This document shows positions 2,628 to 18,423 of a DNA stretch of 18,423 bases, one piece after another; position 1 is the stretch's first letter; every line of letters starts with the position of its first letter. The notes beneath the pieces were generated by a model. That model was not told the origin of the DNA, searched no databases, and saw only the letters and a program-made list of their open reading frames with translations. The stretch is from a virus (Duplodnaviria; Heunggongvirae; Uroviricota; Caudoviricetes). The stretch spans positions 1-18,423 of the IMG/VR virus record IMGVR_UViG_2667527959_000011. One strand, written 5' to 3'. The translations under genes and the position numbers were made by a program.

Positions 2628-2739
2628 TATATTGCCCTCCAGCTACCTTACCTAATGTCTGTTGGTATATTGGCTTTGATAACATTTTCGTCCGTGTATT
2701 CATTTATATACTCATTAGTTTCAATGTATTATATAGAAC

Positions 2740-3872
2740 ATGAAGCGTGCCTATAAATATCGATTCTATCCAACTCCCGAACAAACCGAGCTATTAGCCC
2801 GGACTTTTGGGTGTGTGCGTTTTGTCTATAACAGCCTCCTTCGCTGGCGCACCGATGCGTACTACGCACGCCATGAGAGGGTCGGCTATGCACAAGCCAG
2901 CGCCAAATTAACGGCACTGAAAAAAGAACCAGAATTCGCCTGGCTGAATGACGTTTCCTGCGTCCCCCTCCAGCAGTCTCTGCGCCACCAACAAACGGCT
3001 TTTGCTAACTTTTTCGCCGGGCGTGCTGCATACCCAGTTTTTAAGAGCAAGCGGCATAAACAGGCCGCAGAACTAACTGCCAGCGCATTTAAATACCGTG
3101 ACGGCAAGCTGTGTACATGGCAAAGAGCAAAGAGCCGTTAGATGTTCGCTGGAGCCGTCCGTTGCCGTCTGCTCCATCCACTGTCACTATCACCAGGGAT
3201 GCTGCCGGACGATATTTTGTATCCTGTCTCTGCGAGTTTGAGCCTGTATCACTGCCGATCACCGTTTCCACGGTCGGCATTGATATTGGTTTAAAAGATT
3301 TGTTCGTCACCGATACCGGTTTCAAAACTGGCAATCCTCGACACAACGCTAAATACGCGAAGCGATTAGCAGTGTTACAGCGCAGATTGAGCAAGAAACA
3401 AAAAGGCTCAAAGAACCGCGCCAAAGCACGTTTAAAGGTTGCCCGCCTCCACGCGAGAATAGTCGATTGTCGGATGGATAACCTGCATAAGTTATCCCGC
3501 AAACTGATTAACGAAAACCAAGTTGTTTGCGTCGAATCCCTTAAAGTGAAAAACATGATCCGTAACCCGAAGCTGTCTAAAGCAATAGCTGACGCAGGCT
3601 GGAGCGAACTTGTACGCCAACTCCAGTACAAAGGAGAATGGGGTGGACGTAGCATTGTCGCTATCGACCAGTATTTCCCTTCTTCCAAACGTTGCAGCAG
3701 TTGCGGCTTCACCATGCAAAAAATGCCTCTTAATATTCGTAAATGGCACTGCCCGGAATGTGGCGCAGAGCATGATCGTGATATTAACGCGGCCCGTAAT
3801 ATAAAAGCTGCCGGGCTGGCAGTGTTAGCCCTTGGAGAGTCTGTAATTCCTAAGCCGCTTCATGTGGTTTAG
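2740..3872 (+). pseudogene. tnpB: IS200/IS605-family TnpB (OrfB) RNA-guided nuclease, interrupted by a -1 frameshift near 3102-3141
   Basis: N-terminal fragment (2740..3141) starts MKRAYKYRFYPTPEQ, the typical OrfB N-terminus. C-terminal fragment (3111..3872, frame -1) carries RuvC-I (VGIDIGLKD), RuvC-II (VVCVESLKVKN), a zinc finger (CSSCG...CPECG) and RuvC-III (HDRDINAARNI). No tnpA is adjacent. Confidence 0.8.
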
Positions 3873-3904
3873 GTCGGACTCTGTGAATTGGGAATGTTTG
3901 CCGT

Positions 3905-5635
<1,731 letters not shown>

Positions 5636-5701: not shown

Positions 5702-8700
5702 ATGAACAAGCTATCTATGGGGGTGTTTCGCTGTTCAAGTGTCAGCGAAATATTGAAATACATTAGGGCAATAACATCTCACCGAGCGCCGATTAAATAC
5801 GGCGTGGAAAAGGTGGAAGGCAAAAGCTATGACCAACTGCGCCGGGAGGCGAATCAGAAGGCGATAGATTTGCTTAATTCGCTGGTGGACGGCGCGACAC
5901 TGACAGATGAACAGCGCCAGATCCTGGCTGGGTACACCGGTGAAGGCGGCATTGGCGGGTCCGTCTCCGAATATTACACACCAAAGCCGATCGCTGAAGG
6001 TGTCTGGGAGATCATGAAGCTCTACGGCGCGGACGTAGGTAACACTCTGGAACCATCGGCGGGCACCGGCGTTTTTAATGAGACAAAACCGGTTGGTACG
6101 GTGATGACCGCGACTGAGATCAGCAGTGTTTCCGGTCGTATAAACCAGCTGTTACATCCGGAAGACAGCGTACAGATTTCCCCGTTCGAACAACTGGCTG
6201 TAAGCACGCCTAACGATTCATTCGACCATGTTGTGGGTAACGTTCCGTTCGGCGGTCGTGATAACACACGCAACATCGATAAGCCTTACGCAGAAGAAAC
6301 GGATATGGGGTCTTACTTCATGCTCCGCATGCTGGACAAGATAAAGCCAGGCGGATTCATGTGTGTGATTGTGCCGCCGTCCATTGTTTCAGGTTCAAAC
6401 ATGAAGCGGTTGCGTCTGCGCCTATCCCGTAAAGCTGAATTTCTTGGCGCTCACCGCTTGCCTACCGGTACTTTTGACGCAAACGGGACCAGTACGGTCG
6501 TTGACGTGGTGCTGATGCGCAAACATCCGGCGGAGATGGCTGAGAAAATCCCCCTGGTGGATGAAGGCACTCTTGAATCGGCAAATGTGCTTTGGCCAAC
6601 GTTTATTTCTGGCAAGTGGTTTGAAAAGGACGGCCGCCGGTTTGTTCATGGCACCCAGGAGAAGGGATTCCAGGGGCGTATTGAGGTTCGTGCCGACGGG
6701 CAGATTGATAACCAGGCTCTTAAAGCGAAGCTGATTCATCGTTTCGAAAGTCGTATCGACTGGTCTTTGCTCGATATGGCTGAACCGTCACCGACCGCAG
6801 ATGTTGTTGATGAAGGGGAAATGCGCTTGATTAATGGCGTATGGCAAAAATATGCTGGTGGTCGCTGGATTGAAGCTGATGCTGGTAAGGAGCTTAAGAT
6901 TGATGCTGCCAGTTATGGCGCGGATAGCTGGGAGGCTCTTCAGCGTAACCTGACTACAACAGAAGGCCGTCTCGGTATGACATTTACCCAGATGGCAAAT
7001 GTCCGCGATAAGTACACCACATCAATCAGCGACGATATGGTGCAGCTGGTGGACTGGATTAACAGCCAGCCTGAAAAATACCGTGAACGCTTGTATCGTG
7101 GGGCGATGATTGGCCGGATGTTAATTGAATATCAGGATATGAAGGCCGCCGGGCATAGTGCTGAACAAATCGAACAGCAGCGCCTTTCTCTGGTGTCCCG
7201 TTTGCAGGCAGAGATTGACCGTTTTGGTAACCCCGGTCGCGGTCCGATAGCTAAATTATCGGGAAGCGGTGCGCGCGCCTGGTTTGCTTTCCGTGGTGCA
7301 ATTAAGCTGGATGGCACTATTTCTGACGAGCTAACAGGAAAGCTGGTTACGCATGATTCCAGCGCCAGTTATGACTCCACCAGCTATCAGGACACCCTGC
7401 GTTATCTCTATAGCGATCTTACCCGCGATCCAATCCAGCTCGATGATTTCCGCCTTGCGTTTACCGGCGAACTGCCAGCCAGTGATGAAGAGTTGCTTAA
7501 TTTATTGGCCAGCACCCCTGGTATTGCGGTTTCACCGTATGGCGGGATTGTTCCGTTCGCCCGCGCCACCAGCGGCGACATTAACGAGATAGTGGCTCCA
7601 AAACAGGAATTCCTTGCCACACTCCCCGACGGTCCAGTAAAGAACAACGTCCTTAATCAGCTGGCAGCGATCGAAGAGAAGCGCATCAAGACGCCAGCAG
7701 AGAATATCCGCTTTAAGCTCAATAGCCGTTGGTTCGACCGCTCCGTCATTCTGGAGTTTTTGCAGGAAAACGGCTATCCGGATCTGCGCTATGTGCAGTC
7801 AGTGCAGCTGGAAGGCGACGAAATGGTTTCTGACACCTATCACGGTGGTGATGGTCTGTTCGTCGGGCACCGATACGGTGTCGTCCAGCGCAAGGATAAA
7901 GAAACAGGCGAGATCCGCTACGAGTGGGACCGTAAATCAGGTGAAAACGCGACTGGGTTCCCGGCACAGCTGGAAAAGTATCTCAATGGTGCGCGTATCG
8001 GTGGCAAAGATAGCGCGACGGCGAACGGCTACCGCGAGCAGATGGCACTGCTTGAGGACCAGTTCAATAAGTGGATCAAGACGCACGATCGCTACGATGA
8101 GCTGGTTGCCAAATACAACGATGTGTTCAATAGCAATATCCCGTATGAACACTCTGGCGATCCGCTTGTGTTGAAGGGATTAAGCGGTAAGCGCCAGCCA
8201 TTTGATTACCAGAATAGCGAGGTGCGCCGACTGTCCGAAGATGGGCGCGGCATCCTGGGCTTCGGCACCGGGCTGGGTAAAACCACGACCGCGCTGGCGC
8301 TTGAGGCGTTCAACTATGAGAACGGTCGCTCTACCCGTACTGCGTATGTAGTGCCTAAATCAGTGCTGGAAAATTGGTATTACGAAGCAAAAGAATTCCT
8401 GAGTGAAGAGGCATTCAGTAACTACCTGTTCGTCGGTCTTGATGTGCTGATGGATGGCGATCAGATTCGCCAGGTGCCGGTGCTCGATGAGAACGGTAAA
8501 CCTGTTCTTGGTACTGATGGCACTCCAGTTATGCGCGATGCTCTTAAGCTGGCAGATGAAGCCACTATCACGGCGCGGATGAACGCGATCCCGCACTCAA
8601 ATTACCGTGCAGTCGTGTTTACCAAAGAACAATACGCCCGCATTCCGCTACGTGATGACACCGTAGATGAGCATGCACAGGATATGCTTTATGACTTCGT

Positions 8701-11700
8701 TGCCGCCGGGCGCGTAGCCAGTGCAATGGATTCCGATTCCCATCGCAAAGAGGCGGCGCGTCGCCGGGTATTGTCGGAGTATTCAGATACCGGTACCGAA
8801 AAAGCAGAGAAGTATCCGTACTTTGAGGATATGGGCTTCGACAGCGTGATCGCCGACGAAGGCCACAACTACCGCAATAGCTATAAAAATGGTCGCGAAG
8901 CGTCACAGCTGGCCTATCTGCCCACCAGCGCGGTAGCGCAATCGGCGCGAGATATGGCAATCAAAAACGCGTACCTGATGAAAAAGAATGGCGGGCGCGG
9001 ACCGGTTCTCCTGACTGCAACGCCAGTCGTTAACACCCCGATCGATGCATACAACATGCTTTCTCATGTTCTGCCGAAGGAATACTGGCAGAAGATGGGG
9101 ATCTACGGTCCTGATGACTTCGTTAAACTCTTCGGCAAGACCAGGCTGGAAACGGTACAGAAAATCAGCGGTGAAGTTGAAGAAAAAATGGCGCTGGTGG
9201 GCTTTGAAAACCTTGATGCGCTGCGCGGCATATTCCATCGCTGGACAACGCTTAAAACGGCGGAAGACGTTAAGGATACCGTGGAGATCCCGGAGCTTGA
9301 CGAACACCAGCAGGATGCACCACTTACTGAAGAACAACTGGCGGCGTATGAAGAATTACGCCAGCAGGCGGAAGCGGCGGCCAAAGCCAACAATGGCGTA
9401 ACGACCTCGATCGATGAAGACGGAGTGATTGAGCACGAGAAAGCCCGTCCGATCTTCTCAATAATCAGGGATATGGACCGCGTATGTACTGACATGGACC
9501 TGTACTATCGCCGGATCACCTATCGTTTCCTGCCGGAGTACGCCGATGCGGTGCAGCAGCTGGCGGACAGTTTGCCTAAACAAGCCACCAGCGAAGACGA
9601 CGACAGTGATGATTCAATCACGCAGCAATCGCAATACTCCCTGATAGATAAGGGCGAGTTTATTCAGTTGCAGGTTCCGGAAGCGTTCGAGCAGGAAGTG
9701 AATAAGCGCCTGGCCAGGTTTGGCATTGACGAACAGACCGTAACTCACCCCGTTACGCCCAAATACGCGAAGCTGATTGCCACGCTGAAGGAGTTTTTCC
9801 CGGAAGGGAAGCAAATCATCTTCACCGACGAAAAAACGCAGCACCAGAAGCTCAAGCGCATTATCTGCAATGCTCTTAACCTTGAACCTTCAAAGGTAGG
9901 GATCCTGAATGCTCAGACGGTTGCCGAGGCAGGTAAAACCGGTAAGAAACTGAAAGCGGTTAAACCGCCGAAAGAGTTACCGGATGAACCAACAGATGCA
10001 CAGATAGCGAAATACAACGAGCAAATGGCTCTGTATGACGCCTATATCGCGCAGCAAAATGAAATGTCGTTGGGCGGTCTGGAAAAGATTGCAGCCGACT
10101 TCCAGGAGGGCCGGACTCCGATCATCATCTGCAACAAAAAGGCAGAGGTGGGTATCAACCTGCATCGAGGAACGACTGACATCCATCATCTGACGTTGCC
10201 ATGGACACCAGCCAGTATCGCACAGCGTAACGGTCGCGGTGCTCGAGTTGGCTCCAACCGTGCAAGCGTTCGCGTTCACTACTACTGCGGCAAGGGGTCT
10301 TTCGATGAATACCGATTGAAGACGCTGAAGCGTAAAGCAGGCTGGATCTCCGATATCCTCCGTTCAGATAAGTCGGAAATGGAGAACGCCGACGCCAATG
10401 ACATGATCGAAATGCAGATGTATACCGCGAAGGATGACGGCGAACGTCTGGCAATGATGCAGGTTCAAATGGATAAGGCGAAAGCTGCGAAACGCGCTCG
10501 CCAGAAAGAACAGGCTACTATCGACCTTCAGAATTACATCAAGGCGCAGCACGCAGCTGGCGAGGATGTGGAGGTACTTACCGCTGAATTAGAGCGAAGC
10601 AAAGCGGAACTTGAAAAGACCACCGCCGAGGTAGCTAAATTCAAACAGGCGGTAATGGCCAAAGCAGCTGATAACGCAGACTGGAAAGCCCGCTGGGGTA
10701 GCGTCCATCACACAGACCGTACGTTGTTAGCACAGTATCGCGCGTCGTTGAAAAGCGCCATTCAGCGCAAGGCTAATATCTCTCAGGCCATCTCCCGCTA
10801 TGAGAAATTATTGAACCGTACTCAGAAGGCCGCGACGGATATCAAACGCCTGCGCCCGCTGGTGGAGGATGCAATAAATAAAGGCATTCTGGATGTTGAT
10901 CCTGATCTGGTTAACCATGCGAATGAGTTCCTTGTTATCGGCGATCGCTCATGGCGTGTAGGCCAATACTACGATTGTGCCGGTGATATCGTTCGCATTA
11001 AGTCGCTGGACTTCGACAGCCAGCGCGCAGACGTGGAGATCATCTTTACCTTAAGAGGCACCAAATCGGGTAACTGGGATGTGAAGACGCTGGATAAACA
11101 GGTTGATGTAACTCCCGATGAAGATGCTGTTATGCAGAAAATCAGTGGTGGCGTCTCCATCGCCGGGATTAACGACATCATTTCCTGTGACGATTTCTAC
11201 CGTTTCCAGCAGCGCGGCATGATCAAAATCACTGACTCGTACGGCGTTCAGACTACAGAGTCAGGCTATAGCATTGATTTTGTTGGTACCTATACGGACC
11301 CACTGAAGCATGCGGTTTACCCGGATCGCCGTGACGGCGCGCTGAAGTCGTCAATTGCAAAATGGGTGCTTGGTATGATGTCGGAAGGGAATAACCGCCA
11401 GATCCGTTCGGCAGAAACATTCCTGGTTGAATTGTTTGGCTCCAATTATGGCGATGTAATCGCGTCATACGGAGATACGCTATCCCCTGAAGCAATTCAG
11501 GAGAAAATAGCGGATGCGATCGCCAGAATGCCGGAAAAAACAAGCCAGGGGTCTACTCGTAACGGGGATTCTGAACTTGAAGTCACCAATGCCATTTTCG
11601 GTACCAATGAGTTCCGGGCGTCAGATTATGAGATCACCACAGCACAGTTTGGCACCATTGGCATTTACAGCAATAAAGACGAGATCAAGCAGGCAATGGA

Positions 11701-15390: not shown

Positions 15391-15428
15391 CAGTTGTCAA
15401 TCATTTATCATTAAAAATAATATATTTA

Positions 15429-15991
15429 TTAGTGCATGATGTTTGCCATCTCATAGGCGTCAGCCAGTAACTCCATCTCTGACTTGTTCAGTAGGGTGAA
15501 TTCTTTCTTGCCTCCAACCACACCATCGGCATGAACAGGGACCAGCCAGGGGTATTTTGCTCTTACTTCAGTCGGTGCTGCATGCTGGTGGTGCCATCTC
15601 TACAAAGTGGCAATTGCTTTTTATGACAACCCGGCGCGGTACGACCGGCGATATGGTGCAGAGACACCTCATTAGATATTACTCCATGCATATAGCAGGC
15701 AATGCAGGGGAGAGTGCCAAGAGCATTGGCGATGCGCCGTTCCTCCGCCGTTGGTGTTCTCCCCTTCAAGCCACGAGATTTTATTTTTACCGCGCTTTTC
15801 CGCGTTTTGCTGGCTGGTGGGCGCTCTTTCTGTTTAGCGATACGGCGGTCGATAGTATCCCGCATTTTCTGATATTGAGATTCTCGCCAGACCGGATCAG
15901 CCAACTTCTCCCGTTGCCGAGCGATCGCTCGTTCTCTGGCTGCCTTCTGCCACTTGCGGCACTGTTCAATTTTTTGTTCGATTGTTTTCAT
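15429..15991 (-). pseudogene. ref: Ref (HNH-type recombination enhancement endonuclease) with a frameshift
   Basis: N-terminal 131 codons (MKTIEQKIEQ...LPLCR) are in one frame; the remaining 55 codons (WHHQHAAPTEV...ANIMH, stop at 15429-15431) are open in the -1 frame. The break falls in the minus-strand run TGTAGAGATGG (forward ~15597-15603). Removing two bases restores a 186-aa product. Confidence 0.8.
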
Positions 15992-15997
15992 ATGGTC

Positions 15998-16024
15998 AAA
16001 AAAAAGGCGGCCTAATAGCCGCCT
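15998..16024 (-). terminator. Intrinsic terminator 6 nt upstream of the ref start codon
   Basis: Minus strand reads AGGCGGC-uauuag-GCCGCCU followed by seven U (forward A-run 15998-16004), then gacc and the ATG. Confidence 0.6.
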
Positions 16025-16083
16025 ATGATGTCAAGGAGTGAAGTAATGGCAACGTCTTCGTAGTTGACAAAAACTGCGACTCA

Positions 16084-18231: not shown

Positions 18232-18423
18232 TTTGCCGCCGTTACGTAATACGACTTTGGATTCACTATTTAATGTGTCTTCAGCGTTGTAGAGCGGCTC
18301 AGAAGGAAATGAGCAAACAGGGAAACCTTATACAACGGCATTACAGCTATGCATTGCTCATCTTAGGAAGGTGCGAATAAGCAGGTCATTTCTTCCCAAG
18401 CTGACTCGCTGATTAAAATTTCG

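Follow-up and report, generated by a model that had tools for sequence, protein, structure and literature searches.

A two-base duplication truncates the nuclease gene ref in a sublineage of P1-like phage-plasmids

Introduction

The question raised by this locus is whether the ref gene of a P1-like phage-plasmid segment has been inactivated in nature or merely looks broken through an error of assembly. The DNA analysed here (the window; 18,423 bp in all) was described in an earlier note, made from the letters alone, which reported that ref is frameshifted and left both readings standing. That note referred to Ref as a stimulator of RecA-dependent recombination. [quoted passage not shown]

Residues 1–76 of Ref are unstructured, positively charged and DNA-binding, and the globular part is a 110-residue HNH (beta-beta-alpha-metal) nuclease domain with two bound zinc ions (PMC4330346). 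The active-site zinc is held by three histidines, and His153 chelates it (PMC3973344). An active-site role is documented for both His134 and His153 (PMC4713147, PMC3973344), and the double mutant H134A/H153A is the standard nuclease-dead variant (PMC4713147). We asked whether the frameshift is real, what the remaining protein loses and keeps, and how often ref is lost in related phage-plasmids.

Results

The window derives from a P1-like phage-plasmid

The 18.4-kb window is a P1-like (IncY-type) phage-plasmid segment from Escherichia coli. It carries ssb, a lysozyme gene, pro (head-processing protease), the portal gene, darB (encoding a 2255-aa methylase/helicase), two small genes, a SIR2-family gene, mat, ref, c8, cre and cra, in an order that matches phage P1 and IncY-type plasmids. 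Its DNA is 98.1% identical to P1. The closest complete record among the matches listed is plasmid pRHB26-C21_3 (CP057446), with 98.9% identity over 14.4 kb and 99.4% in the ref region. The SIR2-family gene (435 aa, PF13289; 13235–14542, minus strand) adjoins mat at the site where P1 has the res/mod type III restriction system, and probably represents a defence cassette exchanged in this group of plasmids.

At each end the window stops in the terminus of a multicopy insertion sequence, and the two termini have the inverted repeat GGAAGGTGCGAATAAGC in common. Positions 1–56 match the end of an IS5-like/ISKpn26-family element, and positions 18366–18423, which begin with the same inverted repeat, are another multicopy repeat with 4,886 matching places in RefSeq complete E. 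coli genomes. Related plasmids run on as P1 sequence beyond 18365, the IS insertions at the ends being particular to the window and to one further contig (L013), and the contig evidently broke at IS copies. Contigs from short-read assembly typically break at repeats. The IS termini thus fit an assembly from short reads, in which 2-base insertion errors are rare.

A +2 duplication interrupts ref after codon 131

The original ref gene lies on the minus strand (15991–15429) and starts with an ATG at 15991–15989. Within the minus-strand run TGTAGAGATGG (15604–15594) the window has TGT AGAGA TGG instead of the TGT AGA TGG of phage P1 and the closest plasmids, in which AGA is codon Arg131 and TGG is Trp132. 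The bases AG (equivalently GA) are therefore tandemly duplicated (AGAGA; 15597–15601, minus strand). In alignments with P1 (NC_005856) and CP057446 this 2-base insertion was the sole indel inside ref, exactly where the earlier note had placed the frameshift and exactly of the size it had given. Compared with intact orthologues the indel is not a multiple of three, and a stop codon follows 11 codons on. The insertion specifically sets the window apart from hundreds of sequences that are otherwise nearly identical, and is not a chance pattern.

The disrupted ORF (15563–15991, minus strand; stop TAA at 15565–15563) encodes 142 aa, of which 131 are native Ref residues and 11 are out of frame. The eleven aberrant codons GAT GGC ACC ACC AGC ATG CAG CAC CGA CTG AAG (15566–15598, minus strand) specify the tail DGTTSMQHRLK, so that the product ends ...QLPLCR-DGTTSMQHRLK; our translation agreed with the earlier reading in this tail and in the loss of the C-terminal 55 residues. 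The remaining stretch (15429–15596, minus strand) is an untranslated remnant that formerly encoded Ref residues 132–186 and the stop, including the codons of His134 (15590–15588) and His153 (15533–15531). Read in the second frame from 15596 it still gives WHHQHAAPTEVRAKYPWLVPVHADG...ANIMH (WHHQHAAPTEV...ANIMH), 55 aa, with a stop at 15431–15429.

Removal of two bases yields a 186-aa protein that is identical to the natural Ref of three related contigs (L021, L023 and L024). It aligns over residues 1–186 with the crystallised P1 Ref (PDB 3PLW; E = 6e-123) with 4 substitutions, which confirms the restored length and the match in size with P1 Ref given in the earlier note. Residues 1–131 are 100% identical to the intact allele and show 2 differences from P1 Ref. 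The identification of the gene as P1 ref is likewise upheld by homology, by the cre-c8-ref-mat synteny and by the regulatory context, the c8-ref-mat position being accompanied by the P1ref and P2ref promoters and a C1 operator as expected for the family.

The control elements were located by homology with the P1 annotation. The P1ref promoter (16025–16052, minus strand; -35 TTGCCA at 16052–16047, -10 CATCAT at 16030–16025) is identical to that of P1. The segment 16084–16107 (minus strand), which comprises the C1 operator Oref (ATTGCTCTAATTGGTTG, 16107–16091) and the P2ref -10 element TATAAT (16089–16084), is identical to that of the intact-ref sibling L021. The C1 operator Omat (15421–15438, plus strand) overlaps the original ref stop codon and is conserved throughout, alignment columns 601–681 being invariant. 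Given that P1ref, P2ref, Oref and an H-NS-type CGATAAA motif are unchanged compared with L021, a truncated ref mRNA is presumably still made in lytic growth.

Directly before the ref ATG lies a GC-rich hairpin (16005–16024, minus strand) whose last base starts a T8 run (16005–15998) and which overlaps the site where P1ref transcription is expected to begin. In a loop-adjacent pair of this hairpin, a C-to-T change at 16017 was seen in all 11 carriers of the frameshift described below and in none of 12 other compared sequences; the predicted fold energy rises from -17.1 to -14.9 kcal/mol, corresponding to a weaker hairpin.

The frameshift recurs in independent samples

If the frameshift were a sequencing or assembly artefact, the true sequence would be two bases shorter and ref intact. 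This explanation draws on the databases in which the frameshifted 27-mer is absent: there were no exact matches in GTDB species-representative genomes, IMG/VR or JGI metagenome contigs, it was not found in INPHARED phages, and the site-spanning sequences in PLSDB and RefSeq complete E. coli were all two bases shorter among the matches listed. Moreover, tnpB of the window is also split by a private 2-base duplication, and a pair of such lesions might point to a systematic error. However, an exact-protein look-up (NCBI, Logan, ENA), the one search that recovered the allele, placed the 142-aa product on at least 50 public contigs, listed under 73 index blocks, and the N-terminal tnpB fragment occurs on 123 contigs.

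We fetched ten carrier loci (L005–L014), namely two NCBI assemblies (GCA_050023135.1 and GCA_037167745.1), seven Logan assemblies, each from its own SRA run, and a scaffold from a human-associated ENA metagenome. The mutated 27-mer was present in 10 of 10 loci and the wild-type 27-mer in none; with per-run assemblies standing in for read pile-ups, no carrier had the sequence two bases shorter that would have indicated an intact gene. The identical insertion was thus obtained from ten samples through at least three pipelines (NCBI submitter, Logan per-run and ENA metagenome), and the sequence around it differs between carriers. Nor is the window generally error-prone, since apart from ref and tnpB there is no coding indel in 18 kb and the other backbone genes, including the one for the 2255-aa DarB, are unbroken.

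The carriers are related without being copies of one another. The ENA scaffold (ERZ28582499 scaffold_611; 18,434 bp) is a near-identical sibling with 1 SNP from the window over the 12.9 kb compared, and the fetched carriers as a whole differ from the window by 1–19 SNPs per 12.8 kb. Structural variants also occur among them: two (L005 and L010) have a 4.9-kb deletion in darB, and some have an extra ANT gene near c1. Given these SNP and structural differences, the carriers are not one molecule sequenced repeatedly. Within a 4.5-kb region, the 11 carriers (the window and the ten loci) differ among themselves by 0–5 SNPs, versus 5–11 SNPs from the five nearest insertion-free relatives, of which four have an intact ref (L004, L021, L023 and L024) and one has a 10-bp deletion of its own (L019). 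As the carriers are closer to each other than to these relatives, the insertion arose once and was inherited by a diversifying sublineage. A substitution at 15492 (A in 9 of 11 carriers) arose within the carrier lineage and would be silent in the original ref frame.

The deletion in L005 and L010, equivalent to window 6143–11071 (~4.9 kb), leaves ORFs of 462 and 150 aa from darB, the gene of the antirestriction methylase/helicase, and is further gene decay inside the frameshift sublineage.

The lesion is therefore reproducible in independent samples and assemblies and forms a clade, and its presence in many independent public assemblies marks an inherited pseudogene and not a sequencing error. 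Of the two readings offered earlier, we accept real inactivation and reject assembly error, in view of the identical insertion in all ten fetched loci and of the occurrence of its product on at least 50 contigs. We consider it very probable that the frameshift is a genuine, vertically inherited loss-of-function allele of a P1-like phage-plasmid; an artefact is highly improbable. We found no paper describing this specific ref allele.

A second duplication splits tnpB in a similar context

Between pro and the portal gene lies an IS200/IS605-type element (~2640–3919). Its tnpB (2740–3872, plus strand) is split into ORFs of 133 and 253 aa by a private +2 duplication, TGT to TGTGT, at 3110–3114. 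The element was matched in 39 RefSeq complete E. coli genomes, all of which lack the duplication. Among public contigs, 123 encode the 133-aa N-terminal fragment; the tnpB and ref frameshifts occur together in L005 and L010.

The duplications in ref (15604–15594, minus strand) and tnpB (3110–3120) lie in nearly the same 11-nt context, TGTA[G/C]ATGGCA, with 10 of 11 positions identical; in a post hoc test, random site pairs in the window matched that well in 0.5% of 5000 trials. This context hosts both private +2 duplications of the window and adjoins a transposon end in an unrelated contig (L105; see below), and may be a mutational or insertional hotspot.

Origin of the duplication, recoding and phase variation

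The duplication probably originated by replication slippage on the minimal AGA repeat. The change from AGA to AGAGA at codons 131/132 shifts the frame, and translation stops 11 codons on. It happened a single time, in a backbone with intact-ref siblings that still exist, and the sublineage that inherited it has since gained SNPs and structural changes. Two other origins were considered and rejected. Restriction-site fill-in is not compatible with the sequence, as TAGA/AGAT and CTGT/TGTA are not palindromic, and a transposon excision footprint with a 2-bp target duplication has neither a supporting element nor a TA target.

A frameshift in the DNA does not preclude full-length Ref if the ribosome (by -1 or +2 frameshifting) or the polymerase (by transcriptional slippage) is programmed to recode it. 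The two frames do overlap, and a -1 slip in the overlap would yield Ref plus one residue. Yet the usable overlap is only 39 nt long (AGAGATGG...CTGAAGTAA) and is bounded immediately 5' by a TAG in the target frame (TTG TAG AGA TGG). No run of three identical bases was found in these 39 nt, so they contain neither an X XXY YYZ heptamer nor a homopolymer for polymerase slippage. Furthermore, the two-frame arrangement is limited to one sublineage, all other relatives having one continuous ORF. Programmed recoding is thus barely credible.

Two further routes to a functional product were tried and rejected. Frameshifting at an upstream AAA AAG motif would run directly into the target-frame TAG, and separate translation of the C-terminal part would begin at the first start-type codon, a GTG, giving a 30-aa peptide that begins past His153.

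The mutation alters the copy number of an AG unit, as would be expected of a reversible phase-variation switch governed by dinucleotide-repeat length. The tract is merely (AG)2.5, however, and has the same length in each of the 11 carriers; the duplication was present in none of the nearest relatives and no length heterogeneity was seen. We regard phase variation as next to impossible at this site. The locus lacks the features of a programmed frameshift site and of a phase-variable simple-sequence locus alike, which leaves an ordinary inherited frameshift as our reading.

What the truncated protein loses and keeps

The reading frame is lost after Arg131, so that residues 132–186 are missing, and with them the zinc-coordinating active-site histidines His134 and His153 as well as the latter half of the nuclease domain. 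The restored protein matches PF16786 (E = 1.6e-50) over profile positions 1–102 of 103; in the 142-aa product the match shrinks to positions 1–52. In place of a complete 186-aa nuclease domain in a single frame there is an ORF of 142 aa, and both active-site histidine codons lie 3' of the frameshift and of the premature stop. With His134, His153 and half of PF16786 removed and no recoding signal present, the 142-aa product is expected to be nuclease-dead and unable to cleave RecA-bound DNA.

In P1 Δref lysogens, survival of ciprofloxacin equals that of non-lysogens, the SOS response is lower and lysogenisation is ~40-fold more efficient (PMC4713147). By analogy, lysogens with the frameshift allele should behave like P1 Δref lysogens.

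The N-terminal DNA-binding segment is retained in the 142-aa product and could conceivably keep a residual role. Over-expression of RefΔC110, a variant reduced to the N-terminal 76 aa, gives stronger SOS induction than the wild type (PMC4713147), and "null" may be too strong a word for the frameshift allele given this activity. Promoters, C1 operator and start codon are unchanged versus intact siblings, residues 1–131 are fully identical to the intact allele, and none of the 11 carriers has a second disabling mutation in the 5' part of ref. The carriers are so close to each other (0–5 SNPs per 4.5 kb), however, that the absence of further decay weighs little. Half an HNH/zinc domain without its ligands would also be likely to misfold and be degraded, and other lineages break ref far earlier, leaving a 64-aa ORF in L019 and 66 aa in L097 and L098, which speaks for simple loss being tolerated. 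A residual DNA-binding role is therefore unlikely, and plain loss of Ref function is the reading that we prefer.

How often ref is lost

Ref integrity was surveyed in 80 IMG/VR loci and in 10 loci with the same Mat allele as the window, which served as samples in place of the ~700 PLSDB and ~700 RefSeq matches. An intact 186-aa ref was found in 73 of the 80 IMG/VR loci and in nine of the ten contigs sampled via the Mat allele, that is, in ~90% of the surveyed P1-like loci. The Mat allele next to ref occurs in 2,802 index blocks compared with 73 for the truncated Ref (~2.6%).

The disrupted or altered forms were of several kinds. L019 (GCA_044911255.1) has an independent 10-bp ref deletion, equivalent to window 15847–15856, that leaves a 64-aa ORF on a backbone differing from its nearest intact siblings (L004, L021 and L024) by 5–6 SNPs. 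A common early frameshift (66 aa) is present in L097 and L098, and L103 has a ref without its N-terminus. Changes near the C-terminus comprise a frameshift after residue 178 (L076) and altered ends in L079 and L095 (SJ46), in the latter after residue 180; L104 has a divergent 150-aa form. In L105 (lesion at 4470–4480), the locus of the 90%-identity cluster representative P0002, a Tn3-family inverted repeat (GGGGAGCCCGCAGAATTCGG...) stands directly after TGTAGATGG, after Trp132 and 3 bp from the duplication site. Tn1721-type transposons have been reported to insert at ref/mat in P1-like phages such as SJ46 and P1-CTX (PMC11117986), and the Tn3-family end in L105 fits such an insertion.

These small samples thus contain at least five independent ref disruptions, namely the AG duplication, the 10-bp deletion, the early frameshift, the N-terminal truncation and the Tn3-family insertion. 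Recurrent disruption fits relaxed constraint on a gene that is dispensable; it also gives no more than a hint that losing the gene may benefit the plasmid prophage. Over 4.5 kb, two of the three lineage-fixed derived changes that were seen in no other compared sequence fall in ref or its leader. Lysogens with Ref are hypersensitive to ciprofloxacin and reach a lower stationary-phase density, and Ref reduces lysogenisation 40-fold (PMC4713147); in view of these costs a ref-minus lineage could spread more successfully as a plasmid among E. coli exposed to antibiotics. That ref loss is positively selected in P1-like plasmid prophages, and not merely tolerated, nevertheless strikes us as rather doubtful.

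Discussion

The frameshift in ref amounts to a real and ordinary loss of a gene that is not essential. For annotation it follows that ref is a true pseudogene here and should not be "corrected", and in the sublineage that carries it (~2.6% of the index blocks with the same Mat allele) nature provides a ref-minus P1-like plasmid. Pseudogenisation of a phage gene that is non-essential and toxic to the host is nothing unusual, and dozens of public assemblies already contain the allele. As the ref gene, its function and the effects of its deletion are well studied, a frameshifted copy is unsurprising in itself. Should ref loss prove both recurrent and selected, a nuclease of the phage lytic cycle would be tied to how well phage-plasmid lysogens fare when exposed to quinolones, and the alleles described here would be natural ones with which to test the phage-antibiotic synergy model of Ronayne et al. 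(PMC4713147).

Tn1721-type disruptions of ref (PMC11117986) are, like the frameshift, natural and independent events in the same plasmid family. Unlike in those cases, there is no mobile element inside ref of the window, and the lesion is a 2-base duplication.

The laboratory ref mutants (P1 Δref::Kan, Ref H134A/H153A and RefΔC110; PMC4713147) offer a second comparison. The histidines mutated in Ref H134A/H153A (PMC4713147) are the very two that are missing from the window product. Like RefΔC110 (PMC4713147), the window allele keeps the N-terminal DNA-binding segment; unlike RefΔC110, its product also keeps globular-domain residues 77–131 and bears an 11-residue foreign tail.

With P1 itself the window ref shares the locus (cre-c8-ref-mat), the promoters and the C1 operator, and the restored protein differs from P1 Ref at four of 186 positions, two of them within residues 1–131. 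What sets the two genes apart is the +2 frameshift past codon 131, which costs the window allele residues 132–186 and leaves it with half of PF16786.
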